A DNA stretch of 32,536 nt from Psammoneis japonica (GCA_008632985.1 QPGO01000047.1:388608-421143); one strand, 5' to 3'. Shown: positions 1 to 32,536, counted from the stretch's first letter. The notes: generated by a model from the letters alone, not told the origin. Made by a program: numbers and translations.

Positions 1-687
1 ATGGCGACAATGCACGCACTGTCCCTTTTTGAATTTGGACGTTGGCTCCTTCCAAGGCTTCTTGACAAGGTCGTCGCGATGGCCCGACAGATCGTCCTCG
101 GTTGATGGTAAAAACGATCCCGCCAAGTGCACACGAATGAGAACAGCCAGTGCCACTGCCAACATGAGACGCAAGAGAAATCCCATGAGGCTGCTGATGT
201 CAAAATTCTTGAAAGCCATGCCGATGTGAAACACGACAACCGCAGCAGTCAAATCGAAGCGCTTCAAGACGGCTGCTGCGCTCGCGAAGTCGAAACGCTT
301 GATGCATTCCTTGGACATGCCAACAACGAGTCCCGTGCACTTCAATGAGATGGTTTTGGACTTGATGGCAACGAAATGGAGTTGGCTCCAGATGGGAGAC
401 CCGATGATGGAGGACCAAATCGATTTGACAGTGACGTTCGGAAACCACTGCTGCTTGATGTGCAAAAAGTCCTCCGTGAGCCCCAACAACCCCTGGCACA
501 ATCCGTAGATAAACGTCGAGAATGTCGTGATAGAAACAACATCGAGATCTTGTAGTAAGGCGCAACAGCCGACCCAAAGAGCAAAACGAAGCCAATCGCT
601 CGCGCTCTTGCGTTGAATCACAACTGCAATCAAGTCACAGTGGCTGACATTGACAACGGCGTTCATAAAGAGGATAGAGGACATCAT
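1..687 (-). pseudogene. Mutated copy (5' part) of the 293-aa membrane/Tudor-like gene
   Basis: ATG at 687 corresponds to 5814 in copy B. The frame runs off the window. Many TpA->TG/CA missense changes, e.g. GQYVYYRH -> GQCVHCRH. Inactivation is inferred, no stop was seen. Confidence 0.7.
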
Positions 688-1105
688 GGTGATGATGGAG
701 ATGCAATGTCTTTGTTGCTTGTACCTTCAAAGAAATTGTGACAGCTTGAATCGATGCCTTTCGAAAGGCGCTCGGACAGTCGTCAGCACAAAGACACGTA
801 GAATGTACGAGGAATCCCGGCAAAAAGAAAGTCTTGGCACCGTTTCACCATATGGTATACTAATATCGGGCTGGATATATGTATTGGCCGAAACCGACCT
901 CTAACATCATGGTCACTACCGGTAAACATGTTCCGACATCATGGTGGTGTGTTGCGATCAATTCGGTTGCTTTTTTTCGACGATTTGAAAGATGATGTTT
1001 GTGTGAGGTCAAGAATGTTCATTTCCTACTTTGTCCTTCCTTCTGCCACGTAATTATGAATTTTCTTTCATTCAATTTCTTTATTTATTACTCTTTCTCT
1101 TCATA
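1..1105. repeat. Copy A of the triplicated ~2 kb unit (left-truncated by window; direct orientation relative to copy B)
   Basis: 1-~993 aligns near-identically to 5128-~6122 (offset 5127). Weaker similarity continues to ~1105. Confidence 0.95.
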
Positions 1106-11529: not shown

Positions 11530-14500
11530 TAGAAATGGCCGCGACTGCGGCTCCGGCAATTTGCCACAAAGCCAATGCCATGACCAAGGGGGCTGCCAAC
11601 TCCTTCTCGCGGAAAAAAGGACAGCCGCTGCAGCCAGAAGCACAATGCACCATTGCCACCACTATGTTGAGTTCCAGCTCAGTTTGCACAACGTCTCCTC
11701 TAAGAAAAACAAAACCATGTCCAACAACCCTCTTTGCCACGTGGAACTCTGACAGAAAACGAGGCGAGAAAAAAAAAGAGAGAACAAAAGCAGCAGAGAC
11801 GCTCTCATTGACACAACAACGAACATGACTAAAACAGATGATGATGCTAAAGACAAATCACTTGAAACACAACTTTGGAATGCAGACCTTTTGTGCAAGT
11901 TGCCAGACAACAGAGCAGCAACAGGCCATTTTGAGACAATTGCTGAAGACAGTGCTTTCTGTCACTTGTCCCTCTCTTGTGGCCAGTGCACTCCCTGCAG
12001 AGCTCTCTGCTTGGTTGTGTCACAAGAAACAGGAAACCAGACCTCAAGCTGGAGCCTGCATCTGTGAGAAGCCTGGGTGCAAAGCTCCCAATGCAAGAGA
12101 GAGAGAGAGAGAGAGCCACGCAAGAAAAAGAAGGGTGTGGCCGCCGCCCAAGCAATCGAGGCTCACTCTGTGCTCATCAATGTGCGGTGTGACATTGACA
12201 AAAAGAAAGAACAAGGCTGCAGCAGCTTGAGGGTGAGATTGCAGCAGCTCAATCTGACAGCTTGCGATGCACAGAGCTGCTTCTTCATTGGATGGACATG
12301 TCTACACAGCCCAACAAGACATCAGGACAATGTGGCAGATGGGAGCGTGGGTTTCCGCCTCAGCTTCTGAGCGGTGGTGGGGGATGAGGCATCTGTGGGC
12401 TGTGCAAGTTTCATGAGCAGGAAGTCTGTGGAAACTGGGTCATTGTCTTTTGCCACATGAAGCAAGTTGAGCACTAAAAGAAATTCAGAAATGTGTTTCT
12501 TCTGCTGCGGCACTTTTGTTTTTCTTGTGTGTTTTGCTCTTTGTTGTTTTCCAGAAGGGCACACTTGAGTGGCTTTTGCCCTTTTCTCATCATTGTGTTT
12601 TCTGCAATTGCCTGTTCTGCATGCCACAGAAATGCAATTGATGGAAACAACACCAGCATTCTGCCAGCGCCATTGAAGAAAGCTCAAAGTTGACAAGGGC
12701 CAGCAGCTGCTGGGCTCATGAGCTGTGCCAACAAAAAATGCTGCAAAGCTCTCATCTGGTTTGGTGCTGCAAGTCATTGAAGATGACAAAAGAGAGCTCT
12801 GCTTTGCTTGAAGCACAATGAAGTGAGAAACTGCATGGTTGTGGGTGGGCTTCTTTGGGGACATCTGGCACATGGTCAAGGAGACAGCTCACAACAATGG
12901 GTGACTCCCAGGCCAGCTCAAAGTGCTTGTGAATGACCAATGCATTGTGATTGTCTGTGGATGGAAGGGGTGAAGAAGCAAGAGAGACAATGTCAGCACT
13001 GCTCCAGTGCTGTCTCATCTTTGCAAGTGGAGCAGAGAGGAGTGGCCACTCGAGTGCTGCTGTGTCTGCCTCAGTGCTGCTGGAGCAGAGCACAAGAGCA
13101 CACACACCAGTGCTTTGCAAAAATCTCATGGATTTTGGGTTCCATTTGGCAAGCTTGCAAAGAAGAGTGATGCTCTCACAGACACAAACAAACAAGCTCT
13201 GCGGACAAGCACAAATGTGAAAAAATCATTCTTGACAAGAGCCAACAAAGATCACACAGGCAGAAAATCAGACATCAATCTTCTGCAAACACATCATGCA
13301 CACTGGATCTGACTCAAACAATGTCTCAACATCCAGCTCAAAAACAAGTGACATTGCTCAAATGAAGTTGACAGCTGGTTGAAACCAAACAAATCACTCA
13401 ATTTTTAAGTTGGTTTGAACAATTTGCAACTGCAAAAACAACAAAAAAAGACACAGGGAATGACCATCAGGCTGACTGGCTCAGCATCATGCCAAAAAGC
13501 ACATCATTGCCACCAACCAACACACCAAATGCAAAACACAGGATGCTGCCTGGGGCACCCTGTCAATGACGGCATTGTGAGAAAGCAGCAGCAGAGCCAA
13601 AAAAGGACTGTGCACAACCAAACAAAAACAGCAGAGAGAAAAGACAAGAGGTTCTTGGAAATGTGACATGAAATGTGAAAGCAGGCAGCTTTCAGAACAG
13701 TGCAAAAAACTGATGCTTTTGCTTTGACACAACATGAGTTGCACCTGGGGCAAACACCATGGTGCTGCAACATTGCACAAAAGTGGGCAGAAGCATCATC
13801 ATCACCAAACTGTTTCCACACCAAAAACGTGCAAAGCTCATGACTCCCATGCACTCTTCTCTCCCAGCAGGCAAAGCTCTGGTGCCACTCAAATGATGAA
13901 TGTCACACAAAGAATTTGGCATTTGTTGAGTGACAAACAATGGGAGCATGGCACCAAGTGGAGCACAAGCACCAAGACTGGAGCACATGACACAATGCCA
14001 GAATGACCAAGAGAGACAGGGTGCTGTGCAGATGGCAAAAGACCATGGGGGGATGAAAAAAACAACAGAGCAAAGAGAAGAGAGTGGGCGGCAGAGAATG
14101 AAAACATGCAGGAGAGAAAGTTGACATTGCCAGAAACCCAAATTGTGGTGTGCATGGGTCAAATTGTCAGCAGCGTGCAGACAATGCAAAAGGCAATCAA
14201 TGAGATCAATTTGTGCAGTTTTTGTCAGAAATGAACTGTGCACCAGCAATTTGTTGCAGATGCACTGTTGTTGCTCCCAAGAACAAAAGCTGACAAGTCA
14301 CAAGTTTTGTTCATTGGTGCTCCCCACTTTGAGTGTCAATTTGTCGCATCTGCACAAGAAACCACCCACAATGAATTTGTTGCTGACATGTGCAAAATTA
14401 GTTTTGTGAGGGATCACATGCACTGCAAGACCAAATTTCCTTGGACATTGTTTCCCACTTTAAGTTTTCACTCAATTGTCAAAAAAGCCTTGGACCACAC

Positions 14501-15600
14501 CAAAGAAGCACTTGTTGAGAACACATCAATCTTGTCAAGCACAGATCAATTCTGAGTCAGAGCAACAACATTTTCCAGACATGAGACAGCTCTCTCCACA
14601 CAGCTTTGATCCCTTGACTTCCAGATCTTTTTTTTAATGCCACATCTTTCTCCCAGACTCAGAACAAGAGTTGACTCTTCAAAAACCATGGAGGGGGTTG
14701 CCAGCAGCTGGCAACAATGTGGGCAGCAGTGCAGCCAACAGAAGACAAAAAGACTGACACAGAGATGCAAAGTTGATGACTTTGGAAGGCCAGTTTGTGC
14801 CAAAATGGCAAGCCCAAAGAATCCTTTGCACCCTGGGAGGTTGGTGTGTCATGCATTTCCACCTGCATCTGCCAAAAAGAGGATGGTCAGATGACTTGCT
14901 GGCAAGCTGTCCAAGCGCACCGCCTTTGTCATTTGCCATGGTGTCGTGCTGGTGTCGTGCTCTCCCTTGAGCAAGAGGCTCCATTTGCAGAGCATGCAAA
15001 CCAAGAACACAGCTGGACATGGCAACACTGCCAGCCAAGCAACACACCAGCTGACTGCTGCACCCATTGTTTTGGGTGGAAAAGCATGGCCAGGGGGAGA
15101 GCAGCTGGGGCAATGCCCGCTGTTTTGGGCAGAAGCGCAGCCGGGAGAAGAGCAGCTGGACAGCTGGGACAAAGCAGGAAAAGAAAGGTGCTGGATCCTT
15201 TGTGCTCATTCTTGGCTCAGGCAAAAATGGCAGGAGGGGCACCATGCTTTTCCAGAGATCACATGCTGCCCCAGCACAAGTTGGTCACAAAGCATCAACA
15301 AAAAAGAAAGGTGCTGGGTTCAGGCAAAAAAATGGGGGGAGGAGGGGGCACCAAGCTTTTCTGGAGATCACGTGCTGTCCCAGAATGCAAGTCAGTCCAG
15401 ACTTGGTGCTTTCATGCACACTGGAGCTTTTTGCAGAGGGCGCACAAGGCAGGAGGTGTCTTCTGCCCTGCAGCGCTGCACTTTGCCATGGATGAGATGG
15501 GAGCGGAGATTGGATGGGATGCCGCCGTGTTTCGGTCGGGGACGGACACAAGCGGACAGGAGGCATGTTCGCAGTTTTTTGTTTGTGTTGTTGTATCCAC
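11530..15600. other. Heavily mutated block almost devoid of TpA and strongly depleted of CpG. Probable decayed repeat/mobile or duplicated DNA of unknown identity
   Basis: Only 6 TA dinucleotides by manual count in 11881-15540, few CG, large excess of TG/CA. No recognisable domain. Edges are gradual and approximate. Confidence 0.85.
12096..12115. repeat. (AG)10 microsatellite
   Basis: Directly visible. Confidence 0.9.
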
Positions 15601-15869
15601 AAAAGGTGTTTCGCGGCGCAGCATCTTCATCTGGGTTTGCAATTAAGTGCAACAATAACGTTCAACGTGTTGGAAGCTGACAGCCGCAAAGCACAACATG
15701 ACACTAAAGTCAGCAGCCGTAGCTGGCTAACGACTTGACCCAAGGAGGCGACAGCACTAAACGCGAGAACAAAAGCAGACCCTCCTACCAAGAAGTCATG
15801 TATGATATGAGCACGGCGTACCAGTCATTGATTTATCGAATCCAAACGAATCGGAATTGATCAAGCAAG

Positions 15870-16800
15870 TGTCAGTAGCCTGTAGACTAGTACTTCTGGG
15901 TTCTTCCAAGTAACAAAACCACGGCATCCCTCCGTCTCTCTTACAAAAGTTCAGGAAGCAATCTGAGCTGTATTTCGATTTACCATATATGAAACGAAGA
16001 AGAAATGGAAACGTAACGAGTGCAATGCACGAGGCTTTTTTGACGATGAATTGACAAAGCAGCGTCGGGATTGGAAAGAATGTATCGATGTAGGCGTGCC
16101 AGGTTCTCGTGACTGGTCCTTATTGGATGATGATAAGCGCAACGAGTGCTTGGACGGAATGAACCAACTTCCGGATCAAATTGCGTCTCTAATGGCCAAG
16201 GGGCTTTTTGTTTTAGACAAAATACTTGAGCAACCTCAAGAGTTAGCCAATGAGAAATCCATTGCATCGGTCGAGTTGGAGGCAACTGCCAGCGTTTTTT
16301 GGAGGCAATGAGGAATAATCACGCCTCGTATCTGAGAATCAATTATTATCCGCCGTGTCCCCAGACGGAACCCCACCTTCACTGCCTCCTTTGGGTACTG
16401 TATTTCGCCTCACAAGGATGCCGGATTGACGGGTGTCATTTACTGCAGGTGGCGCGTCACGAGCCTTGTCTTGCTGATGGCAGCATGTTCGATTTTGACA
16501 AGCTAGACTGGGTCACGGTGCGACCCATCGAGGGAGCGCTCACAATTAATGCAGGAGACATGGCCATGATTTGGTCTAATGGGCGCTATCGTGCCCCACT
16601 TCATCGTGTCAGAACCGTTCCTATCAAACGTAGATATTCTTCGCCATTCTTCTACAATCTTGGGTACAACACCCTTGTCTCGCCCGCACTGGTCGGTGAA
16701 CAGGAAGAACCACAGTATCATGGTTGTCTGTGGGGGTATTTCCGTGCTGTGCGATTTGCCGGAGACTTGACTGACTTGCGGATTATCGTGTGAAGAAGAA
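15870..16800 (+). pseudogene. 2OG-Fe(II) dioxygenase (IPNS/DIOX_N type) pseudogene
   Basis: GFFQVT/NHGIP, ARGFFDDELTKQRRDWKE, YLRINYYPPCP, ISPHKDAG (HxD), INAGDM..WSNGRY..PLHRV and RYSSPFF are split over several frames. Confidence 0.85.
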
Positions 16801-17044
16801 CAAGAACGACGAGTCGCCGCATTTGAAGAAAAAGCGGATTTCCATCAAGCCTTTAGTGTGGAAAGGTACGGCCTCTTCTTGTCGGCGAGGTGGATTAGTT
16901 CATGCGAGGGCGACGTTTTGATGAGAGGCTTCAATTTTATAGATCGTAAGGGACATTAGTATGATTGACAGAGTACACGACTGTACACCACTCTAGAGTG
17001 GGCGAATCATCGCTATCAGTGCTCTCTGTTCCAGCGTTAGCGTC

Positions 17045-19025
<1,981 letters not shown>

Positions 19026-19502
19026 TCAAAAAGTCCAAAGCGCGACCCTCAAGTGTCGCCCCATTTCAAAGTCATCGAGGTATGTTTTCCCGTGCGTCGC
19101 CAAACACGCGGAAACGGACTTTTCTCTCATCACTCATCACACAAACATCAACACGAGCATCAGCGATCAGCAACCATGGTTGTCACCGACGAACATGAGT
19201 ATCATCGACTTCGTGTTGATAGCATTGGTCTCATTGTTGTCCACACAAAAACTGATTCATAATGAAAACAAACGAAAATGTTCTCTGAACTCGCATTGTG
19301 TATTTTTATTCTCACATTCTCAGTGAGTGCACGCATCACCAACATCTCAGCACGGCATTTGCGAAAGTGACAGACTCTATTGATTAAATGTATTTTTTTG
19401 TTTTCTCAATTGCATTCTTGCAAGGAAGTGCAAACACTAACTTGCGTTTCTTTTTTTTGTCAAAGGTTGCTTTCGCCTGAATCATGTTGCCTATTAGCAG
19501 TA

Positions 19503-21733
19503 TGATACAGCCATGAGAAGCAGGGCACTTGCAGTATTATCGCAATGCCGCTCTGATGACAGCCGCACCTCATCGATTGATCGCCATCGTGGGGATTATG
19601 ATCAGTATGTATGAAGAAAGAGTTCATAAATAAAAGATCAACCAGCGAAGAAAGACATCGTCAAACAATTGCCTCTACTATATGAAAAATACGTGGCAGA
19701 GGAAAAGACATAATAGGAAATGTTGAACTTTCCTGACCCACACAACATCGATCAAAGCGTCAAAAAGCAACCGAATTGATCGCAACACACCACCATGATG
19801 TCGGAACATGTTTACCGGTAGTGACCATGATGTTAGAGGTCGGTTTCGGCCAATACATATATCCAGCCCGATATTAGTATACCGTATGGTGAAACGGTGC
19901 CAAGACTTTCTTTTTGCCGGGATTCCTCGTACATTCTACGTGTCTTTGTACTGACGACTGTCCGAGCGCCTTTCGAAAGGCATCGATTCAAGCTGTCACA
20001 ATTTCTTTGAAGGTACAAGCAACAAAGACATTGCATCTCCATCATCACCATGATGTCCTCTATCCTCTTTATGAACGCCGTGATCAATGTCAGCCACCAT
20101 GACTTGATTGCAGCTGTGATTCAACGCAAGAGCGCGAGCGATTGGCTTCGTTTTGCTCTTTGGGTCGGCATTGCGCCTTACTACAAGAACTCGATGTTGT
20201 TTCTATCACGATATTCTCAACGTTTATCTATGGATTGTACCAGGGGTTGTTGGGGCTCACGGAGGACTTTTTGCATGTCAAGCAGCAGTGGTTTCCGAAC
20301 GTCACCATCAAATCGATTTGGTCCTCCATCATCGGGTCTCCCATCTGGAGCAAACTCCATTTCGTTGCCATCAAGTCCAAAACCATCTTATTGAAGTGCA
20401 TGGGACTCGTTGTTGGCATGTCCAAGGAACGCATCAAGCGTGTCGACTTTGCGAGCGCAGCAGCCGTCTTGAAGCGCTTCGATTTGACTGCTGCGGTTGT
20501 CGTGTTTCACATCGGCATGGCTTTCAAGAATTTTGATGTCAGCAGCCTCATGGGATTTCTCTTGCGTCTCACATTGGCAGTGACTCTGGCTGTTCTCATT
20601 CGCATGCACTTGGCGGGATCGTTTTTACCATCAACCGAGGACGATCTGTCGGGCCATCGCGACGACCTTGTCAAGAAGCCTTGGAAGGAGAAGGGACAGT
20701 GCGTGTGTTGTCACCATTCAAACAAGACATGGAGAGCAAAGATTTTAAGGGTCCATTTTGACGATGACCTTGACCCGTTCTATGACGTGAAATTGGGCGA
20801 CGGACGCGAGAAGCAGACCACCGAGGACCACCTTACGGACCAGCTCGGCTCAGGTCACTTTCAGGTTTTTATTGACATCTTTGACGACGATCCGGATTGC
20901 AACACATTGTAAGGTGCTCAATGTGGGGAAGGGGATGTCGCCAGTGCAATCTTGTGACGATTGTTCCAACGAGATGTTCGACAGGGGAGGATTGCCGAGT
21001 GTCACATGTGGATGCGGTGTGACGAGTTTGCGTGTTGAATTCTTTGTTCAACTCGGGCTCTCTTTTTTCGAAAAAAAAAAGGCCTTTGCTGTCGAGATCA
21101 GAGGGCGACCATCTTCACACTTTTGAATGAGAGTTTGATTGATTGCATTGGGTCTTGAATTCAAGCTCGCATTGGACACACATTCAATTCGAGCTGATTC
21201 CGAAACATGCCATTGTTTCCGAACAGAGCATGTGAACGAGAACAAGAGATTCATGCGGCAATCAAACTCAAATTCGCACCGGTGTGAAGGTGGTGCCTTC
21301 TTTTTCGAAAGTGGAGGGGCGGCTGTTAAAAAATCGAGAAAGGAAAGTTGAAGTCGAGGAAACTGTTCAACACGAGAAACTCTTGCTCCCTCTGCAAGAG
21401 ACGCTTTGCCATTCTAATTCAGTTGGGCAATCTATTTTGGTTTCATTCAATCAAGATGAGCAGAGTCTTGTGCAATGAAAAGATAAACAAACAAGAAAAT
21501 TTAATCAACACTTCTCTGTCTTGTCTTGAACTAGATGAAAAGCACTGTTTGTCGTTCGTGTCACAGCCTGCACTCGCAATCGATCGATCCAAGGCTGAGG
21601 ACGTCACTGCACAACCGGCGGACTAGTGTGGCACCCTTTAGACTAGCTGCGGACTTGTCTCTTGTTCAGCACAGATTGACAGCAGCCACACTCTGCTGCC
21701 AGTCATCAAGAACAAATGCCAACAAACTGTGCA
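19503..21733. repeat. Copy C (inverted) of the triplicated unit. Core ~19762-21588
   Basis: Reverse-complement match to 4081-6445. Confidence 0.9.
20050..20912 (+). pseudogene. Disabled copy of the 293-aa membrane/Tudor-like gene
   Basis: 1-bp deletion near 20170 (frameshift), 18-bp deletion (PTSKFK lost) and YVYYR -> CVCCH. Confidence 0.9.
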
Positions 21734-21785
21734 GTGTCTCTGGTTGCAGTCAGGCCAAGTAGATCCATTCCACCTGCATGTCCCC

Positions 21786-22985
21786 TTAGATGAAACCACA
21801 AGAGAGCAAACGCCTTAACACTCGAAACATTTCGTGTGGAAGCTGGAAAGAATGCAGCTTGATTGTGAAACTCGAGGCACCAAGAAAGACATTTTCAATG
21901 CACTTTGCACGAATCGCCTTGGAGGCGAGAATTGCAGCAGTTTCTGGTTGATCCAGCACCCAGAGAGCAACGTCGTGGGTCTTTTCTGTCACTGTTTTGG
22001 CCTGCTTTATGTCCACTCCTTTGCTGCGGCAGGCCAAGAGGCCGAATGTCCTTGAAAAGATGTGCCAAGTGTGCATCCTCCGCCTTCTGTTCTGATGCTT
22101 CTTGGAATGAGTGTGCACGGCAAATGGACGTGCTTTTTTCTGCATCGAGCATGTCCGCCATGAGGAGACGTCTCTCTCCAAAGTGCGTTGGAGGCCCTCG
22201 CCCACCAATGCAGAAACATGCGAATGCCATGAGGGCAAAGGGCTTTCCAGCCTCAACAATGGCCGTGCTGGCTTTCCAATCGAAAAAGAAATCATCTCCT
22301 TCCTCTACGTTGTCGTCATGCTTCATGGCAAGTGCAAAGGCCAAGCGAATCAGATTCGAATCTCATCGCTGAGCCACCGTGTTGAACCGTAGTTTGCCAC
22401 ACCAACCATCCGTCAACAAATTAAAGTTGGAAATGTCGAAAGACATCAGAACTCTTTCTCGCATTCCCATGCCAAGAGGCGCTTCGGGTCCCACCAACTT
22501 GAGCGCTTCCTCCCTTCCACGGTCAACTTCTCCTTCAATCTCCTCCACACCTTTCCCAGACGCAATGAGTCGTTTCCCCCTTGACATGATCCATTGCGAC
22601 TTTCGCACTTCCCTGACACGATCAAGGCGAGCTAGAAGTGGAGCGAAAACATCCACTTTCCCCAGCTCCTCGGCAACAGGTCGAAGAGCAAGCCCAGTTG
22701 GCCAAAGGGAGGAGCTCCGATCTGCTTCTGTTGCAAACAAATCAAACCTGCTTCGACCATGTTCACTGCAAAATGCTTCCATGGTTGAAAACGCAGCGAT
22801 GACATCGACCCGATCACACTCAATGACGGGAACCGATCAGTGCGGTTCCCATGATTTCATTGGCATGGCGAAGACACCACTTGCTGCAGCAGTTTGCAGG
22901 ATCCACCGAAAACAACAATGGCGGAGCCTTCCAATGCATCAGAAGCCACATGGCAGCATCAACGCCTCTCGAGCCGACGGATGTG
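21786..22985 (-). pseudogene. Degenerate coding-like sequence of unidentified origin, TpA-depleted
   Basis: Protein-like frames (SVPVIECDRVDVIAAFSTMEAF...; LWVLDQPETAAILASKAIR...) broken by TGA and shifts. Not recognised as the continuation of beta-COP. Confidence 0.4.
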
Positions 22986-23049
22986 TCAAGTAAAAAAAAA
23001 CACGCTTCTTTCCGGAAATGGTTTCAAAGGCCTCCACATCAATTTCCTC

Positions 23050-23790
23050 CGCACAGTGTCCAAGTGTTCACCCAAGATCCAGAGACAAACACATGTTGCA
23101 TTGCTTGAAGAACTGTCGTTGATGAAACCCAACAACTTGGGCAAGATGGATCCTCGCAGTGCGATGCACTGTTCGACAATGGCTCTGACAAAAAGAGCAA
23201 CCTGCACAGAACCATCCGCGGCCAAAAAGTCCATGAGAGCAAAAACAACCGACTCGGCAAAATTGGGAAATCGCACAGCGCATCTGTGAACGGCCCAAAT
23301 CAGCATGTTCTGGCAGGCCATGCTCTTGGCTTCCGCCATGGTGCGACAGAGTCCTGCTCTTGAGCAGTCTCGGCCACAACCTCGCGATTGAGCATCAACA
23401 CAAAAATCAGCAACGTCCATGGCAACATCGAGAACCTTCTCGCAAAAATCAGTGCTGCGGAACCAAGCGTGCGAAGAATGCCCATCAGCAGCTGCAAGAT
23501 CTTGCAATGAAGAGTCTTGAGGTCTTCCAACCGTTCAAGAACAATGAGCTTGACAAGTTTAAGTTTGCACAGGTGGAGCGGCAATGGGTGCCGAAAAAAG
23601 CGACGCTGGAACACAAGCTGCCTCGTAGGACACGGCAGCAGATGTGCTGGAAAGCATTGGAAACGAGATCCGGACAAAATCGTGACTTTTGGGTAGGAAC
23701 ACGACGACACAGCTTGGACCATGACAAAGGCCGCCGCTGGACATTGTCAGCAAATCCATTGAGTTGGCAGACATGATTGAGTTCGGAACT
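23050..23790 (-). pseudogene. COPB1: Internal fragment of coatomer subunit beta (beta-COP)
   Basis: FVRI...MLSSTSAAVSYEAA, VKLIVLERLEDLK..ILQLLMGILRTL, AVHRCAVRFP..AESVV.ALMDFL, FVRAIVEQ and LWILGEH follow the beta-COP trunk order across frameshifts. Confidence 0.85.
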
Positions 23791-24292
23791 TGGCAAACAA
23801 CTCGACGTGATTTTGTGTCATTCACTCGGTGGTGTTGCGTGTTGTTGTTGCAGATGTGGTACGTTCTTGCTTTGCTTGTAATGCCAACAAACTTGAAGAA
23901 GAACGCTCGCTGCTTGCGACGTGCGGGTGTTCCTTGGACAGATGTGGCATTGTGTTTGGCGCCAAGGTTGGTTTGGGATGTGATGCTGTTGCAGTGGCAG
24001 CGCCGCTACAGTGTACTTCATCCAGCTTGTGGCCCGTCACGGACGGTGTGGTGGTGGCAAACCCCAAAAGGCAAAGCGAAAAGCGAAGTCATGGTCGGCT
24101 GTCATCATGGCGAGGAATCGCTGCAGTCGCTTGTTGAAATAATGTACCAATACAGATTCTAATATCTACATTGAAATTCCAAAATCACGTAGAATCACGT
24201 AGAATGGTACTGAACGAAACTGCTGCCGACGTACGAAGGCAGGACACGAGTGCTGTCACCCACGTACCGGAGGTATGTGAATATCCCTGCTT

Positions 24293-24607
24293 ATGCACAC
24301 GAACCACCTGGTGGTCCGTGTGCATTTTTGGGTGCACACGAACCACCTGGTGGTTCGTGTGCACCCTACGCAAAATGCTGCGTAGATTTGTACCGAATAA
24401 ATCTGAGTACTGTAAATCCGACGTAGGATCTACGTGTTTGTACCACCCAACACTTGTCCACCGAGCCGGCAGTCTGTGCCGGCCGTCGTGACAAATATTT
24501 TATGTCAAAGAAAGAGTTCGTCAGGGCCGGCGAACAACACCCCACTACGATGCGACTGGTATAAAATGTACGTAAATGCACAGGAACCAGCATGTGGTTC
24601 GTGTGCA
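24293..24607. repeat. Three copies of a 31-37 bp palindrome (TGCACACGAACCACC-T-GGTGGTTCGTGTGCA)
   Basis: 24293-24325 (one mismatch), 24330-24366 (perfect 18-bp arms) and 24577-24607 (degenerate). Confidence 0.92.
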
Positions 24608-25137
24608 AATTAGAGCTCGTGAAAAATAAGCAGGGATATTAGGGAACTTTTTTTCAGGATCGCCTCGCAGACCCCAAGACCCATATATCGGTGGAAAGCT
24701 CTCGACGAGCTGAACAAGGTCAAACGCATGTTGTATCGGTCGGAGTGAGCGGAAAGCGAATGTTTGTCGTTGAAAATTTGGTATTTATTTAAGGAAAAAT
24801 AACGGTTATATTCGCCTTTTTGTAATTGATTTTTGTATTTATATACAAACATTAGTCGTATCATAAATTTGACATTTAATCCGGAGTTCCGAAATCTCAT
24901 ACAGGATTGTATACTATATAAATTACTTATGGGACACCTTGTTTCTATACTTTGCTCTTGCTCTACAGCTCTGAAAAATGAAGATATCGAAAAAAGGCTT
25001 TCGTCAGTCGCTGCAACTGGGTGTGTTTTAGTGACTGACGAAAGCCGATTTTCGATAAGTATTTTTGGTGTCGAGATTTTTCAATAGCAAAAATACTTCG
25101 CTACTATTTACATACCTCCGGTACGCGCACGCACATC

Positions 25138-26187
25138 ATGGTTTTGCGGAACTTTTTCGCTCGCCGATCACCGAGCAAAATGCGTGTCACGACCATGAGC
25201 AACGCAGCGGCAGAGCCAGCCTCCTCCTCTTCGTCCTCCTCCGGTGATGATTCTTCCGTGTCATTAACCTCCTCAGAGGAATCACCCTCGGCAGTCGCTA
25301 AAATTCGCAGCTTGGAAGACCTTCCGTCAGACGACAGCGTTTCTCTCGACAGTAGTAGCAGCAGCGATGATGATGAAGCGAGCGAGAGTAGCAGTGGCAG
25401 TAGCAGTCAACACGACGAAGAATACGACAATGAAGATGACGTTGAACAGCACATGACTCTGCAGGAACGACTAGAGAAACAGCGCTCAGAAGGTAGTATG
25501 AAGTTAACAAAGGCTTTACACGACAAACGTCGACGAAAAAAGGAGGCGATTGAAAAGGCACGAGAACAACTGCACAAGTCGGACAAGAACCTTGCAGAAA
25601 AGGAGACAAAAACAAAGAAGAGGTCCAAGCATGCTCCAACAGTGGCAAGCTCGTTACGACGTGATTTTTATCAGCGTGGTGCGCCTCTATTGAACTCATC
25701 AGGCATTGGAGTGGAGATTGGAAGCGGAAGATACAAGGCTCGCGATCCGAGATTTAGTTCTGACGGCAACACAAAAGCCACCAATCGTAACTATGAATTT
25801 ATGAAAGAAAAGTATCAAGAAGAAATAAAGAGAGTTAAACAGCGAATTGCGCTTCGAAAATTGACCGGAAGGCGGGGACAGCGACGACGTCAAGCACATC
25901 GAGCTGAATTGCAGCAAACGACGTTGGAGCAAGATGAAGCTACTTTGCAACGATTGATTCAACAGAGAGCGACGCTACAACAGACAGAGTTGCAACAGCA
26001 AGTTCAGAAAGTCGTTCAAGAAAAGTACCACCAGCAGGGTTACTATCCGAAGCGCAACAAAGTGAAACAAATAACGACAGAGCTCAAGTATGAGCAGCTC
26101 AAGCGCAAAGGCGGGCAGAACGCAATCAACAAGGCATTGGCAAAGAAAAGGAAGAAAAACAAAAGCAAAGATGCAAAGCTGTTTTAA
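25138..26187 (+). CDS. RRP36: rRNA biogenesis protein RRP36 (DUF947 family)
   Basis: Acidic Ser-rich N-terminus, then KRSKHAPTVASS, KARDPRF, NYEFM, coiled coil and YYPKR..LKYEQLK..KALAKKRKKNKSKD. The start may be a downstream Met. Confidence 0.85.
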   Translation: MVLRNFFARRSPSKMRVTTMSNAAAEPASSSSSSSGDDSSVSLTSSEESPSAVAKIRSLEDLPSDDSVSLDSSSSSDDDEASESSSGSSSQHDEEYDNEDDVEQHMTLQERLEKQRSEGSMKLTKALHDKRRRKKEAIEKAREQLHKSDKNLAEKETKTKKRSKHAPTVASSLRRDFYQRGAPLLNSSGIGVEIGSGRYKARDPRFSSDGNTKATNRNYEFMKEKYQEEIKRVKQRIALRKLTGRRGQRRRQAHRAELQQTTLEQDEATLQRLIQQRATLQQTELQQQVQKVVQEKYHQQGYYPKRNKVKQITTELKYEQLKRKGGQNAINKALAKKRKKNKSKDAKLF

Positions 26188-27179
26188 TCACAGTTTGAAT
26201 CACTTTTGCCCTGCCATGCATTGCAAAATATTCTTCTTGTGCATGAAGGTAAGCAAAGGATTCCTCACACTTTTCTTCATCCTCATCCACTGCCAAAGAT
26301 GTCGTTTCCGGAAAAAGCAGGACAATTAGTAATGATTCAAACAGACCGTCGGATTCCATACTCTTGGTGGCGGAAAAAGCTGAGATGTAGGATTTGTGTG
26401 GTAAGATCCAAAAGTTTGATCCAACCGAAGGGACTTGGACGACGATGCGCACCTTGGACCTACCAATAGCAATCGCGGTATGTTGGTAGATGAAGTAACC
26501 ACGCTAGCACCCGGGTGAGGAAGAGGTCCACATCAAACGCGTGTACCCATTTCTCTTTGGGGCGGAATGCTTGGTCCCACTGCTCAGCTTTTTACAATCG
26601 AGATTAATAAACAAGGCAAAATACTGTAGGTTTTGGAATAGTGTGGTGGGGATCTGCTCTGTTGGTATATACAAGTACTATGATGGCATGATTCGCTTTA
26701 AGCAAAATGCTGTAGCCTCTGAATCGTCTTGGTGGCCATAATAAGTAAGCATGGGAGCTCCGCAAACAGACAGGATTGTCGAAAACAACATGGTATATCT
26801 AACATTTGCAAAAGAAACACTTCATCCGCACTGGAAAGCCACGTACTAGGACAAGAGCGCCTACAGGTATGCTGATTGCGCCTACAGTATCTCTTCGTGG
26901 ATTCTACTTCTAGGTGCCAATCGCGGTTGAGACGGTGAACTCTCCGAAAAGCAGCGAATGTGTTTCACAAGAGATGCAATAGACTGAGAAACTTTTCTCT
27001 AGAGAATACATTTCGCAATTCAGCATGACCAAAACCGACATCCTGACCTCATATATACACATGGCCGTCTACTCTAGAGTAGCCTTTTCCTCCTCTCTTC
27101 TCTAGAGAGAGTACCGGTACCTTGAAGGCAGGGCGTGATGATTCGTCCGTCATCTGTCCTACTGTACCTTCAACTTCAA

Positions 27180-28169
27180 TCATGTCCGATTCGCGCTTGC
27201 AGTCGCGCAAGACATTCCCGCCATGACAGAAACAGTTCGTCCAACTGCCGCATTACTTCGCAAGGAACCAAGTGCAATGGCGGCTTCTGCTGCGTCCGCA
27301 GCCTCCTTTCTCCTTGAAATTTCATCTTTGTCCATAACTTGATATTGTAAGCTTTCTGATACCAGACCACCAAGGTTCAGATCAGGACGCGAGGTCTCGG
27401 GTGGTGGAGAATTCGAAAACTGTACGCATTGTTGCGTCGGATTAACAGAAGGGGCTACGCCATTGGGGTAATTCAATTGAACAAAACCCGTCATAGGAAT
27501 ATACGATGGCTGTAGATCAGAGTGAGCATATGTCAGAGCAATATATGCGAGAGGGAGAACCGTATATACCTTTCAGCACATGTAACAGACTTTAGACTCA
27601 CCACCACAATGCCATCACATGAGGCAGCTCTCTTCTTTTCTCGGAGAGCGTGAGAACACTTTTGTAGCGCCTTATAAAATCCAACATCCTCATAGACAAA
27701 TCTACCTTTGGCGCCTTTGGATGGACTCTCACACAGAAACCTGCCACCTCTTGCAAGAACCTGATTATGAACTTGCAGTGCAATCGCCTTCTTCTCCTTT
27801 TTAGATTTGGCTCCGGAGTATTCCTCCTTTCTCATTTCGACAAGCCAACGAAAGCGACGATTACCAATGTAGTCATATGCACCCGAGCCTCGGCCAAGCA
27901 AAACGTCATCAGGTCTGATGAACTGATGACTCTGGCGTTCATTGATGCAGGTCAGGTTGCCGATTTCTGTCGTGCTGTGTTGTGCGATTGGAGCCTGAGA
28001 CAAAAGCAAAGTCGATTAGCCATAAAACCGCTAGTAAGATGATGCGTGGAGTCACCAAGCAAGGAAAGAAGAACAGCGAACGTACCTGCTCAAGGGAGAT
28101 TGGTGAAGTTACTTTCGTCTGATTGGGCTTCTTTCGTTCCCGGAGAGCATGTTGGCACTTTCTAAGCGC
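27180..28169 (-). CDS. DUF6824-type diatom protein, 5' part cut off by the Copia insertion. Exons 28169-28086, 27994-27602, 27509-27180
   Basis: DDVLLGRG....IGNRRFR.LV..RKEEY....KKEK..IA..V...GGRFL...KCSHALRE. Two phase-0 GT-AG introns splice in frame. The upstream exon carries the tail of another such domain (ALRKCQHALRE). Confidence 0.8.
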
Positions 28170-28464
28170 TGTGAGTTCGAGTCACGAGTCAACAACCGAG
28201 TCTGATTCACGGATGACGCTTCCGGTCATGGATCTCTTCTTCCGGAAGAAATGTCCGTTGAGTCTTCTAGCGATAGTAATCGGAGTGACACACACGACCG
28301 TTAGGTCATAATGTCATCTCCAATCCCTCGTGAGATCTTCTCACAATTCGTATCTTTAGCGTATCTTATTGTCCCAAAACTGCTTCTTGTCATCCTCTGT
28401 TGTATTGTACAACCTCAAGAGAGTCCTGAACTCTCCATCCTACACAGTGTATTGTTGTGTCCCA
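28170..28464 (+). repeat. Putative 5' LTR (TG...CA)
   Basis: Starts TGTGAG where the DUF6824 motif breaks off and ends CA two bases before a TGG-starting PBS-like site. The second LTR is not in the window, so this is unconfirmed. Confidence 0.5.
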
Positions 28465-28466
28465 AG

Positions 28467-28480
28467 TGGTTACGACCCCA
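28467..28480 (+). promoter_or_regulatory. Putative primer-binding site TGGTTACGACCCCA
   Basis: Position after the LTR-like CA and resemblance to the copia-type GGTTATGGGCCCA site. Cognate tRNA not identified. Confidence 0.45.
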
Positions 28481-28646
28481 ATCCACGCACCGGTGTCAAC
28501 TCGCAACGGAGTTGCTGCCACTCGTTCGTCTCGTTACAGACGACATCCCATCCAACGGCGATCTTCTATGTCGCAATCCAACGGCGATCATCTGTGTCGC
28601 AATCCCCACCTGCTAATCGATCCTCTGTGTCGAATCATCCATAACC

Positions 28647-31112
28647 ATGTCCATGGATCCTGACACCGTCAAGATGTTTGCTGAGGCCTTCACCAAGATG
28701 CAAACCTCGACCAACCCTCCTACGATCCCCACGCCGCTTCGCGGCGGCATCCACCACTCTCATGGAGTGCATCTGGGTGGTTCGGCTCTGAACAACAAGT
28801 GCGAGCAGACCGACACCCGCACCTGCCGTTTTGCCTCGCAACGTCGCCATCCAAAGGCTGTCGACTCTGTCGAGCGATCTCTCAGAGATCAACTCGCTTC
28901 GGCAACCACATCCAAGTTCAACGGCCAGATTGAGTTGTCCAACGGTTCCAGCACTGAACTGGACAAAGACCACTTTGTCAAGACCATTCAGGACTTAATC
29001 GAGTCACACGGACAAGAAACTTTCTACTGTCTCAAGAAAGTCGACGGCAAGGTCGTGTGCCTTTTTGATCATCTTCACGCCTTCACTGTCAAAGACCTTG
29101 AGAAGGAACATGAGACCCGTGTGGCGGCTGCAGGTGACGAAGGCTACGATCAGTGTGAAATCGATGACATCGGCTTGTCACAACTCATCGTCAAGTCACG
29201 CATCACCGAAACCTTCCGTGAAAAGATTGAAACCAAGTTTAATCACTTGAAGAACTGCAAGGATCTTCCGGGGTCTGTCTCATTTATGATGGCTCTGGAC
29301 ACCTGCAACGCCAGTGCTCTGGTTGACGTCAAGGCCGCCAAGGAAAAGTTGAACGACTTAACTCTGGATGACTGCCCTGGCGAAGACTGCACCGAGCTTG
29401 CAACCGAAGCTCTGCGCCTGCTCAAGATCATGCAGACGGACTGTGCGTCACCAGTTGAAACTGGGTCTGCTGTTTTATCTAAGGTGTCAAAGACATCCTC
29501 CGAGTTTTTCAATCGTCAAGTTTTTGCCAAGCTCGACTCCGTCAAGCGCTTGGAGCGCAAATGTCGCTTGCGTGACCCGGCAGAAGTCCCCAAGGATGCC
29601 GACTGTGCGGATCTCGGACCTGTTGGCCTCATTGGCTGGATCACCAAGACCCATGGCGAACTCATTAGCGATGAAGATTGGCCTGCCTTAGCAGCCAAGC
29701 TCCCGGAATCCAACCTCACCAAGGACAACTCGGAAAAGCATTGCTGCGGCTGTGGCAAGGTTGGGTGCACCAAACGCATGTGTCCCACCTGCAAGGAGCA
29801 ATGCAAGAAGGACAAAAAGGGCACGGCAGACAAGTCCAAGGATGACCCTCCGGATGTCCGGAAGACTGACCCTTCCAAGAAACCACCCAAGCCGGCCTGG
29901 CGTTTCGTTCACAAAGGTGCCACTGTCACCGACGAGAAAGGCACGACCTGGCACTGGTGCGACAAGTGTGTGAACAAGGAAACGGGCAAGAAGGGCATGC
30001 ATCAAGGCCACTCCTCCGCTCAACACACCGGGAAACCGTCTGTCAACACCGAAACCACCGCTGCGGCAAATTTATCTGCTGTGTCGGACCCCTCTTCGGG
30101 CATTCCTTTTGGTCCTCCCAAGCAGACGACGTCTCCGCCTACAGACGAACCCTCTGACCCTAACGAGCTGGTTTATTGCGGCATGTGGTGTGCACCTGTG
30201 GACGACTCTTTGGGTTCGACTCCAGTGACTACGACCGTCTCGTTCACTCCTGCTCCATCGGCCGAGAGGGAGACTGCCGTGGCCAAACCCGCTCCCATCT
30301 TGGTTGAAACGGTTGACCCCGAAGACGCTGACGATTGCTCTGAGTGCTCCAACGCTCACTCCTCTTTTGACTCCCTGCCGTCAGCTGTCGAGCTGTTTCC
30401 GGCCTGTGCCATGCATGAGATTCAAAATCCGGACGTGTTTTATGACACGATCGCAACTCACGTGGAAGGTCTGTCCGACGATGTGTTAGACGATCTCGTT
30501 TCCGGGGCAAGCATCCCACCTTTCGAAGACAGCTGCGAGCACTTACCTCCAAGCACCCAGCATCGCGGTTTCGAATTTTACGATCCCGAACCCCAAGATG
30601 TTGATTGTGGCATCGAGGAGGCAACGCCGAGCTCTCGTCTTGAGCTTTTCTGGAACTTCTTGAAGCTCCGAGTTTTCTGGCTGTTTGCTGTGTTCTGGGA
30701 AACGGCACTGCACATTTGCTGTGCGCCGATTCCTGTCTTACCTCGTCGTGTGCGCCGCAAGGCATTCATCCCAACCATTCACGGTTTCCCCTCTACCTGG
30801 ATGGTGCTGACTGGAGCTGTCATGGTCTGGGCATCTGTTTTCAACGGTCAGCTTCCCACGCATCCATTCTCCAATGTCCCCTCTCGCTTCTCCAAAGCCA
30901 GCTCTCAGGTCTGCTCGATCATTGAAGAACTGGACGATGAGACAGTGTTAGATCCGGGCAGTTTGGTGGAATGCAACAAGATCAAGGCGCGACAAGTGCT
31001 TGCCGAATTTGTGGAGCGCGATCCGGACCATTGTCTGAGCAAGAAATTCACGCAGCTCTGGGAGAACGACGCATGCTCTTCCCTAGGCCGCTGCATCCCT
31101 CCAGCTCTATAA
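28647..31112 (+). CDS. gag: Copia Gag-like ORF with long C-terminal extension, Tyr-depleted
   Basis: 821-aa ORF with CCGCGKVGC..MCPTC and WHWCDKC...H.GHSSAQH motifs. About 35 Cys versus 5 Tyr by my count. Confidence 0.8.
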   Translation: MSMDPDTVKMFAEAFTKMQTSTNPPTIPTPLRGGIHHSHGVHLGGSALNNKCEQTDTRTCRFASQRRHPKAVDSVERSLRDQLASATTSKFNGQIELSNGSSTELDKDHFVKTIQDLIESHGQETFYCLKKVDGKVVCLFDHLHAFTVKDLEKEHETRVAAAGDEGYDQCEIDDIGLSQLIVKSRITETFREKIETKFNHLKNCKDLPGSVSFMMALDTCNASALVDVKAAKEKLNDLTLDDCPGEDCTELATEALRLLKIMQTDCASPVETGSAVLSKVSKTSSEFFNRQVFAKLDSVKRLERKCRLRDPAEVPKDADCADLGPVGLIGWITKTHGELISDEDWPALAAKLPESNLTKDNSEKHCCGCGKVGCTKRMCPTCKEQCKKDKKGTADKSKDDPPDVRKTDPSKKPPKPAWRFVHKGATVTDEKGTTWHWCDKCVNKETGKKGMHQGHSSAQHTGKPSVNTETTAAANLSAVSDPSSGIPFGPPKQTTSPPTDEPSDPNELVYCGMWCAPVDDSLGSTPVTTTVSFTPAPSAERETAVAKPAPILVETVDPEDADDCSECSNAHSSFDSLPSAVELFPACAMHEIQNPDVFYDTIATHVEGLSDDVLDDLVSGASIPPFEDSCEHLPPSTQHRGFEFYDPEPQDVDCGIEEATPSSRLELFWNFLKLRVFWLFAVFWETALHICCAPIPVLPRRVRRKAFIPTIHGFPSTWMVLTGAVMVWASVFNGQLPTHPFSNVPSRFSKASSQVCSIIEELDDETVLDPGSLVECNKIKARQVLAEFVERDPDHCLSKKFTQLWENDACSSLGRCIPPAL

Positions 31113-32536
31113 GACCTCGAGTCCTGCTTCGACACCTGTGATTCAGAGGAAGCCCTCGGCCCGCTCCCGAACGAGCCGAGCCACTACTTTGACACGGTTG
31201 AGGAGCTCTCTCCGGACTATTTTCGTTTCGACGAGCTGTCCACCAAGTTTGGTTTCGTGGACACCACTCCATGGCAAGACCCTGTGAAGCTTCTCCAGGC
31301 AGCCACTGACGGAACCGAAGCCTGTCCTGCTCATACCTCTGTGCAGGTGTTGACAGGCCAACGTTCTTTAGCACAACTCGCCGCCGACCTGCAAGCTTTG
31401 CTGAGCCTGGCACATGAGTGCCACACCGTCACATGCGATGCTGGCGCATCCTCAGCCATTGCTTGCGATGAAAACGACTTTGTCGGACCTCCAACGATCC
31501 CTGATGGCCCGTTGAAGCTTGGGGGTCTAGCAAATGGCTTAACCATCGCCGGCATCGGACCCGTCTCCTGGGTTTTCCATGACGAGGACGGCTCTGAGCT
31601 CGTCGTCAAGACGATGGCGTGCCATGCACCTCAGGCCGGACAACGTCTTCTATCCCCACAACGCCTCTACAGCAAGGAACATGGCATGACAGGAAAATGT
31701 GAGGGAGACGAGGACTCATTTCGAGTGCATGTTGATGGCGCCGGTTCGCTCAAGGTCGCGCACGCGTCAAATCACTTGCCGGTTGCGTCTGTGACCAACG
31801 GGGTGGCACCCGCTCCTCAAGTCAATCTGTCTGTGTTGCACGAGGACAACCAGAACCTCACCACCGGTCAGAAGCTCCTTCAAGAATGGCACTTCAGGTT
31901 TGGTCACCTGAACATGCCACGCATCCAAGGCCTGCTTCGGGCCGAACCTTTTCTCCGACCCAAATTCAAGCATGCTTCGCGTTGCGACATTCCGCGGTGC
32001 GAGGTGTGCGAACATGCCAAAGGACATCGCCGAACCCTCAAGTCTGCCAAACATGCGGCTACTCCAGAGCGTGAGGGTGCTCTTCGAGCCGAGCATCTAC
32101 GTCCAGGCCAAGCCGTCAGCGTGGATCACTTCGAATCCCGTCTCCTCGGCCGAACCTACGACTCCTGCGGGAAGGCCTCGTCCCAGCAATACAAAGGAGG
32201 CTGCATTTTTGTGGATCATGCCTCCGGTTACCCACATGTTGAACACCAACTTGGTTTCTCTGCTGTGGAAATGGTGCGAGCGAAGCAAGCGTTTGAAAAG
32301 CACGCGATGGACCACGGCATCATCATCCAAGAATTTCTTGCCGATTCTGGCGCTTTCAAGGCCAACACTTTTGTGCAATACATGCGACAGCACGAACAAC
32401 GTCTCCGTTTTTGCGGAACCAACGCCCACCATCAGAATGGCGTCGCAGAACGCGGCATTCGCTCCGTCTCCAACATGGCGAGAGCGATGCTCCTCCACGC
32501 ATCCATCCGTTGGAAGGGGGGCACAGACAGCTCTTT
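31113..32536 (+). CDS. pol: Copia pol region (protease, GAG-pre-integrase, integrase core), same frame as gag after one TAA, runs off window
   Basis: VTCDAGASS (protease), RLLSPQ, LQEWHFRFGHLN...CEVC, PGQAVSVDHF, CIFVDHASG, ADSGAF and AHHQNGVAERGIR. Missing from the ORF track because it has no stop before the window end. Confidence 0.92.

Follow-up and report, generated by a model that had tools for sequence, protein, structure and literature searches.

Here we present an analysis of a 32,536-bp window of DNA (GCA_008632985.1 QPGO01000047.1:388608-421143, hereafter the window), in which four domains of repeated DNA, designated D0 to D3, have lost most of their TpA dinucleotides. The depletion runs in the direction of TpG and CpA, is specific to TpA, is confined to domains with sharp edges, and follows a rule set by the bases that flank the TA step. 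These features are probably best accounted for by a local process, acting in repeated DNA, that converts TpA to TpG or CpA with an efficiency depending on the flanks. As proposed, its transitions would be confined to the TA step and would proceed at roughly a hundred times the rate of the other substitutions there; the process would act on the copies of a repeat independently, and on both strands about equally in the repeat copy designated B below, up to saturation, and would never make a new stop codon. Efficiency would be set by the two bases flanking TA, such that RTAY sites (R, purine; Y, pyrimidine; ATAT, ATAC/GTAT and GTAC) would be lost first, sites with one favourable flank would be intermediate, and YTAR sites (TTAA, CTAG and CTAA/TTAG) would resist longest.

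The background of the window contains 903 TpA in 20,704 bp, or 43.7 per kb, with an observed/expected ratio (O/E) of 0.62, and none of its 75 windows of 500 bp has fewer than 12 TpA. The depleted domains are as follows.

1-505, no strand: D0, the saturated part of repeat copy C, truncated by the window start; 1 TpA in 505 bp, O/E 0.04
11849-15593, no strand: D1; 6 TpA in 3745 bp, O/E 0.02
20240-24006, no strand: D2, partly depleted; 30 TpA in 3767 bp, O/E 0.13
28722-32536, plus strand: D3, the body of a Copia-type retrotransposon, running past the window end; 39 TpA in 3815 bp, O/E 0.20

At the background O/E, D1 would be expected to hold 153 TpA where 6 are observed (Poisson 7.5e-57), and the observed and expected numbers are 30 and 147 for D2, 39 and 118 for D3, and 1 and 17 for D0. 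The O/E of TG and CA in D1 is 1.83 and 1.80, compared with 1.20 and 1.17 in the background, and the excess of TG plus CA over the scaled background approximately balances the missing TA plus the missing CG. Genes flanking the depleted domains have normal TpA. All four domains have diverged paralogous contigs or a raised summed contig depth in a public run, X1, this depth not being equivalent to copy number; D1 is among those with diverged paralogous contigs. The comparison with X1 covered 1864 contigs, and the individual differences used here come from the 40 listed among 1399 differing places.

The direction of change can be read from a repeat that is present three times in the window.

4204-6264, plus strand: repeat copy A, the least mutated copy and proxy for the ancestor; by self-BLAST, B is 91.9% and C 95.2% identical to it
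19605-21666, minus strand: repeat copy B, in inverted orientation; the mutated TA sites extend from about 20240 as far as 21666, where the copy ends
1-1063, plus strand: repeat copy C, matching A at 5128-6189
19677-20071, minus strand: the TpA-keeping 5' segment of the repeat as present in copy B, homologous to A 5793-6192 and C 666-1051

Copy A has a background-like TA density, with 5 of its 64 inferred ancestral TA sites mutated, and copy B has 42 mutated TA sites, divided evenly between 21 CA and 21 TG. Exchanges between TA and CA or TG make up 20 of the 23 differences between A and C, other transitions accounting for 2 of the 23; between A and B they make up 47 of 92, with a further 12 of 92 located at CpG. 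At 9 of 85 TA sites, one copy has CA and another has TG (alignment columns 639, 1110, 1231, 1262, 1291, 1297, 1528, 1558 and 1737). Such a split lies one step from TA and two steps from either CA or TG, so TA is the ancestral state and the copies were mutated independently. The process is A:T to G:C at TpA, the reverse of RIP (repeat-induced point mutation). Similar differences are found in the copies in run X1, which have TA where the window has CA at 20399, 21185 and 23167, and CA where the window has TG at 29028-29029 and 29058-29059. Strand-coordinated runs of one product were not significant, either in copy B (18 runs, 22 expected, p=0.14) or in copy C (11 runs, 12.3 expected, p=0.36).

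This polarity bears directly on the reading in which an ordinary RIP-like C to T change at CpA/TpG struck the TA-richer copies, the TA-poor copies being the unmutated originals. Pairwise differences between TA and CA/TG do look alike in both directions, but the nine split sites refute the polarity that this reading requires. Moreover, the TA-poor state is the odd one, since TA O/E in D1 is 0.02 and none of the background 500-bp windows falls below 12 TA, the least mutated copy resembles the background, and conserved tyrosines have been lost in D3 (see below); we give this reading almost no credence.

Depletion begins and ends within a single repeat unit. The 5' ~400 bp of the repeat (columns 1765-2167) lie upstream of the start of the repeat open reading frame (ORF) and are near-identical between copies; the 22 TA sites listed there are TA in all copies present, except for column 1886, which is CA in copy C. 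The remainder of the repeat is heavily mutated in B and C, where depletion sets in within about 50-150 bp of the ORF start. The ORF of copy A had no Pfam matches, no Atlas matches and no relatives in metagenome contigs, and a comparison with 3176 candidates from a protein collection returned no match, not even the ORF itself. A 30-base exact search of the metagenome contigs with the spared part of the repeat also gave no match. A self-comparison of the window in purine/pyrimidine code, to which transitions are invisible, recovered only the A/B/C family, and no unmutated progenitor of D1, D3 or the remaining part of D2 was found within the window.

These observations also bear on whether the depletion might simply reflect inherent composition, codon usage or selection against UA in transcripts, with the surviving TTAA sites discussed below following from composition. 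D3 is GC-rich with a modest gain of TG and CA, the coding strands of host genes already have a TA O/E of 0.4-0.6, and the mix of contexts in the copy A ORF is skewed (RTAR 1, YTAY 21), all of which would fit. However, D1 is TA-poor in all frames though it has no detectable coding capacity, its ORFs of at least 90 aa giving no Pfam matches; the copies of the repeat family differ almost only at TA sites; and the limits of the depletion fall inside one repeat unit. An explanation of this kind is therefore very unlikely.

A sequencing or assembly artefact, in which a modified base at TpA is misread as G or C, appears more improbable still. Methylated motifs do cause systematic miscalls on some platforms, and run X1 has no library type on file. 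Nevertheless, two exact-word contigs from X1, 845 and 696 bases in extent and with depths of 75 and 70, match D1 without a single difference; each site is cleanly CA or TG, with the choice varying between copies; and if inosine were stably present on both strands, the reads would disagree at all of the sites.

A previous reading, made from the sequence alone and here called the sequence-only reading, had drawn attention to the TpA that survive. It reported six survivors in the saturated block, and a recount between the TpA at 11848 and 15594 gave exactly six, including the three TTAA that it had placed; counted at the T of TA, the six are CTAC 12303, CTAA 12475, TTAA 13406, TTAG 14399, TTAA 14461 and TTAA 14635. 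The positions 13405, 14460 and 14634 that it used refer to the first T of TTAA.

13405-13408: surviving TTAA in D1
14460-14463: surviving TTAA in D1
14634-14637: surviving TTAA in D1, where a run of T ends

The additional TTAA sites that it listed at 21815, 22421, 23559, 28995, 29239, 29358 and 31539 are all present, and three more are found in D2, at 20745, 21326 and 21501, giving 13 TTAA starts across the depleted domains (3 in D1, 6 in D2 and 4 in D3). The proposed enrichment of TTAA among survivors was borne out, with 13 of 76 survivors in this context compared with 39 of 905 background TpA (Fisher p=7.2e-5); by domain, the fractions are 3/6 in D1 (p=0.0017), 6/30 in D2 (p=0.0022) and 4/39 in D3 (p=0.096). 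The TAA to TGA changes that it placed at A347 and A433 are likewise real in copy C (T at 346 and 432); at the corresponding alignment columns, 1445 and 1531, copy A has TA and copy C has TG, in the contexts ATAA and GTAA.

The TTAA excess belongs to a wider dependence on flanks. YTAR contexts account for 31 of the 76 survivors as opposed to 156 of the 905 background TpA (p=4.9e-6), and RTAY contexts for 4 as opposed to 292 (p=3.9e-8); ATAT, with 69 occurrences in the background, has no survivor at all. In a Poisson model of survival, each of the two strands was given a factor that depended on the base 3' of its A, and the fitted relative survival factors per strand were 1 for A, 0.75 for G, 0.39 for C and 0.21 for T. 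Uniform survival across NTAN tetramers with starting composition taken into account, which would have spoken against the sequence-only reading, is rejected in favour of the flank model (likelihood ratio (LR) 40.8, p=1.7e-10). The particular form of the rule that it gave, with a target A preferring any 3' base other than A, does not hold: protection by A alone gave a negative log-likelihood of -43.7, compared with -52.4 for a distinction between purine and pyrimidine with an equal number of parameters. As for the notion that TTAA is specially disfavoured, it is indeed the best-surviving context, but not significantly beyond the other YTAR (odds ratio 2.2, p=0.077). TTAA sites that persist form the extreme end of a general dependence on flanks and do not reflect an immunity of their own.

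Because this test by composition assumes background-like ancestors, the flank test was repeated directly on the A/B/C alignment. In copy B, mutated sites amount to 19 of 21 in RTAY contexts, 20 of 32 in mixed contexts and 3 of 10 in YTAR contexts (RTAY versus YTAR, Fisher p=0.0013; 3x2 chi-square p=0.003), and among the YTAR sites TTAA survives at 3 of 5 and the other YTAR at 4 of 5. In copy C, all 10 RTAY sites and 10 of 16 RTAR sites are mutated.

A flank rule of this form might arise from recognition of either one strand or the duplex. A single-strand adenine deaminase acting on 5'-T-A-Y-3' on either strand, inhibited by a 3' purine and most strongly by A, would find YTAR poor on both strands, RTAY good on both and mixed contexts good on one; we regard it as unlikely, though far from negligible. 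The multiplicative per-strand model does fit the survivor counts, as its LR relative to uniform survival indicates. This arrangement predicts that mixed contexts give defined products, RTAR becoming RCAR and YTAY becoming YTGY, and D1 has the corresponding excess, with RCAR plus YTGY at 295 and RTGR plus YCAY at 154, a ratio of 1.92 compared with 1.11 in the background. However, the composition of D1 also includes the products of CpG decay and a purine-rich top strand. In the A/B/C alignment, where products can be assigned site by site, 15 mixed-context products are as predicted and 10 are not, which is indistinguishable from 50:50, and the 87% of favoured product predicted from the hazards in copy B is rejected (p=7e-4). 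The claim of the sequence-only reading that the target A disfavours a 3' A on each strand is, on the same count, not confirmed. The data are matched no less well by a duplex-level preference for alternating purine-pyrimidine tetrads than by a TAY motif on single strands.

One enzymatic likeness is to the TadA/ADAT tRNA adenosine deaminases and the TadA-derived adenine base editors, whose target A follows a U or T. The natural substrate of bacterial TadA is U-A-C, with the A flanked by U on its 5' side and by C on its 3' side, matching the favoured TAY. The natural enzymes, by contrast, act on tRNA and not on chromosomal DNA, and the parallel may serve as a lead only.

The process is specific for TpA at the level of the neighbouring dinucleotides. 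The sequence-only reading had noted that AA runs remain intact, and this is what we find: AA O/E is 1.18 in D1 and 1.18-1.28 across the depleted domains, compared with 1.10 in the background. By the same evidence its appeal to polymerase eta, which makes A to G changes at WA motifs, is contradicted. The likeness to the polymerase eta phase (phase 2) of somatic hypermutation lies in A to G change at TA and in a mutated domain, kilobases long, with its start close to a transcription unit's 5' end, a layout that copies B and C and D3 share. We rejected this candidate on the grounds that WA includes AA, that AA steps are untouched, and that other transitions contribute so little to the differences between A and C. 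Somatic hypermutation is, furthermore, strand-biased at A:T and far from saturating.

Loss of CpG is seen only in D1, where CG O/E is 0.17, as compared with 0.82 in D2 and 0.90 in D3; the CpG that remain in D1 are clustered near both of its edges. Decay of methylated CpG to TG/CA resembles what is seen in D1, and CG sites also differ more between copies, but such decay covers the loss of CpG only and leaves the loss of TpA unexplained. Most of the TA but almost none of the CG has gone from D2 and D3, so the TpA process is distinct from methyl-CpG decay and proceeds much more quickly. Should the loss of CpG in D1 represent slow decay, ordinary transitions at the 839 TG/CA steps of this domain would be expected to have regenerated tens of TpA, yet there are six; this argues for a process that persists, rather than a single burst. 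The D1 stop triplets comprise 4 TAA, 1 TAG and 78 TGA. Of the possible changes at a stop only TAA to TGA preserves it, and none can be created, so long ORFs in depleted DNA are not evidence of genes.

Protein homology gives a separate view of the direction in D3. The element is a Ty1/Copia LTR (long terminal repeat) retrotransposon, with a match to the gag-pre-integrase domain PF13976; its polyprotein has 271 homologues with PF07727/PF13976 (best E=3e-151, 54-60% identity), and among the best relatives the only named ones are from a pennate diatom. Tyrosine makes up 0.6% and 1.5% of the two D3 ORFs, whereas 120 homologues have a median of 3.1% (range 1.7-4.8%). Of seven columns in which tyrosine is conserved among 40 homologues, one is still Tyr in D3 and three now hold Cys or His, while conserved Gly is retained in 26 of 27 columns and conserved Ser in 14 of 14. 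The TAY, TGY and CAY codons number 12, 50 and 55 in D3, as against 67, 37 and 52 in host genes. Depletion sets in no more than 75 bp from the ATG at 28647. In the Copia ORFs (28617-32534, plus strand), survivors have a 5' purine in 5 cases and a 5' pyrimidine in 36, as opposed to 130 and 129 in host genes (p=2.6e-6), and the base 3' of TA has no effect on survival (p=1.0), whereas D2 shows the effect of both flanks. The same tendency is seen in the TTA, CTA, ATA and GTA codons, which number 11, 5, 1 and 0 in D3 and 19, 24, 21 and 28 in host genes. This dependence on the 5' base of the sense strand may mean that one strand is acted upon in the retroelement, for example at the cDNA stage, and a single-strand deaminase working on the minus-strand cDNA would fit it. 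A single in-frame TAA at 31110-31112 separates Copia ORFs of 831 aa and 474 aa in the same frame; this TAA could be a stop that is read through, or else a stop codon that has survived.

D2 consists of most of repeat copy B followed by 2.3 kb of other repeated DNA, which includes a recognizable gene fragment.

22989-23534, minus strand: Adaptin_N fragment in D2 (PF01602, E=4e-12)

The fragment has no Tyr in 182 aa and 5.5% Cys, and at 23167 the window has GCAC where other contigs have GTAC. Here a mutated multi-copy repeat includes part of a host-type gene.

Several points weigh against a repeat-directed process with a symmetric flank rule. First, the composition-based context test takes the domain ancestors to have had the NTAN mix of the window background, an assumption for which D3 (GC 55%) is a poor match, its gain of TG plus CA being smaller than its TA deficit. 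The direct test is confined to one repeat family, with 63 sites in copy B. Also, the flank dependence in D3 is one-sided, which the symmetric rule does not predict. The 5' ~400 bp of the repeat are spared in three copies, so the process does not simply act on all repeated DNA, and the segment 24373-25039, which is TA-rich and has a high summed contig depth, is undepleted. Finally, run X1 may come from the source sample of the window, and its support is to that extent not fully independent.

If a local TpA-directed process is nonetheless accepted, it may be an enzyme-driven pathway aimed at repeats and transposons, resembling RIP in function but with another target base and the opposite direction. 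The chemistry may be on A, by deamination to inosine, or on T, and these two are inseparable from the sequence alone. It is plausible, though we would stop short of calling it probable, that a pathway of the diatom lineage edits chromosomal TpA (A to I to G, or T to C) in the bodies of repeats and transposons, as a genome-defence mutator that differs from RIP and APOBEC in target base and in direction. Such a pathway would recognize a four-base site (RTAY >> YTAR) and would have been active long enough to keep old elements TA-free, and would depend on a naturally occurring enzyme that edits DNA from A:T to G:C, either on the double strand or coupled to transcription. Thymine-directed chemistry, in which the T of R-T-A is modified to a base of the 5-hydroxymethyl- or 5-formyl-uracil type that pairs with G, giving T to C, seems improbable, although A to G and T to C cannot be separated at a palindromic step and all of the observations therefore fit it equally. 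In some protists modified thymines cluster at TpA, and the base 5-formyluracil forms a mispair with G. On the other side, nothing supports thymine chemistry directly, and the 2OG-Fe(II) oxygenase gene at 15967-16790 beside D1 provides no evidence for it, being plant-type (PF03171 plus DIOX_N) and not of the TET/JBP type.

Comparison with known systems places the process nearest to fungal RIP, which the abstract of PMC2621366 describes as a change of C:G to T:A with a preference for CpA. In both systems, repeats undergo dinucleotide-specific transition hypermutation that is saturable and independent between copies and leaves neighbouring single-copy genes intact. Here, however, TpA is lost and CpA/TpG are gained, whereas RIP destroys CpA/TpG and makes TpA; A or T is changed here and C in RIP; RIP makes stop codons and the present process makes none; part of the repeat unit is spared here; and the organism is not a fungus. 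Identity with fungal RIP was rejected, as the split sites and the Tyr columns contradict a C:G to T:A change and a TpA O/E of 0.02-0.20 across D0 to D3 contradicts a CpA/TpG target. Diatoms do contain relatives of the fungal RID/Masc1 proteins, the DNMT4 enzymes, some with chromodomains and of unknown function, and passages of PMC9998398 report DNMT4 as the only RIP-linked enzyme family in diatoms. The cytosine-5 methyltransferase fold of DNMT4 would give C to T, unlike the A:T to G:C change here. Hyper-editing of retroelement RNA by ADAR, fixed in genomic copies, would likewise leave clusters of A to G in repeats. ADAR are animal enzymes with weak neighbour preferences that mark one strand per copy. 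This candidate was rejected on both counts: changes fall on both strands (CA and TG in equal number in copy B, TGY and CAY codons both raised in D3), and the context is tight, with nearly all A-C differences at TpA and AA steps intact. A search of Creative Commons papers in PMC and of bioRxiv returned papers on fungal RIP, ADAR and base editors, and no account of TpA to TpG/CpA hypermutation of repeats in diatoms or elsewhere.

To our knowledge, all described hypermutation defences against repeats and retroelements (RIP, the basidiomycete RIP-like process at TCG, and APOBEC) operate by cytosine deamination and drive sequences toward A:T. The signature described here drives repeats toward G:C at one dinucleotide and destroys stop codons, and would thus need a different enzyme. 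It could be a repeat-directed hypermutation with a new signature, its enzyme, if any, being of an undescribed kind. A natural DNA enzyme tightly specific for TpA, if that is what is at work, would be relevant to genome defence, to the evolution of diatom genomes and to base editing. The flank rule (RTAY > mixed > YTAR; 3' base T≈C > G > A) provides a specificity fingerprint for candidate enzymes, and could be used by repeat-annotation tools to detect such elements and to "de-mutate" them. There is also a practical warning for annotation, in that ORFs in TpA-depleted DNA stay open by construction.

The window as a whole is gene-dense, intron-poor eukaryotic DNA, and its source organism is most likely a diatom or a close relative. 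A Pfam search was made with 113 of the 129 ORFs of at least 90 aa, the 16 omitted being overlapping ORFs within known genes or repeat copies; its matches include EamA, ACT, short-chain dehydrogenase, signal peptide peptidase, 2OG-Fe(II) oxygenase, DEAH-type helicase, RRP36, DUF6824 and the Copia gag-pre-integrase. D1 occupies the gap that separates the signal-peptide-peptidase gene from that of the 2OG-Fe(II) oxygenase. Near its left edge there is a short (GA)n run at 12098-12115, and near its right edge a direct repeat of 84 columns with 76% identity (15211-15286 and 15314-15397). Beside D2, the 250 bp at 24751-25000 contain 27 TpA and have a summed contig depth of 1782 in run X1, with no depletion. 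Just outside repeat copy B, at 19001-19500, TpA is moderately low (O/E 0.30-0.37) and CA is high (1.58-1.69), and this segment may be a weakly affected flank. Additionally, in the normal-looking region of the 2OG-Fe(II) oxygenase gene, the window and other X1 contigs differ by exchanges of TA and TG at 15729, 16551 and 16623; these may be alleles or a paralogue of ~88% identity, and may represent TA-type changes outside the depleted domains.

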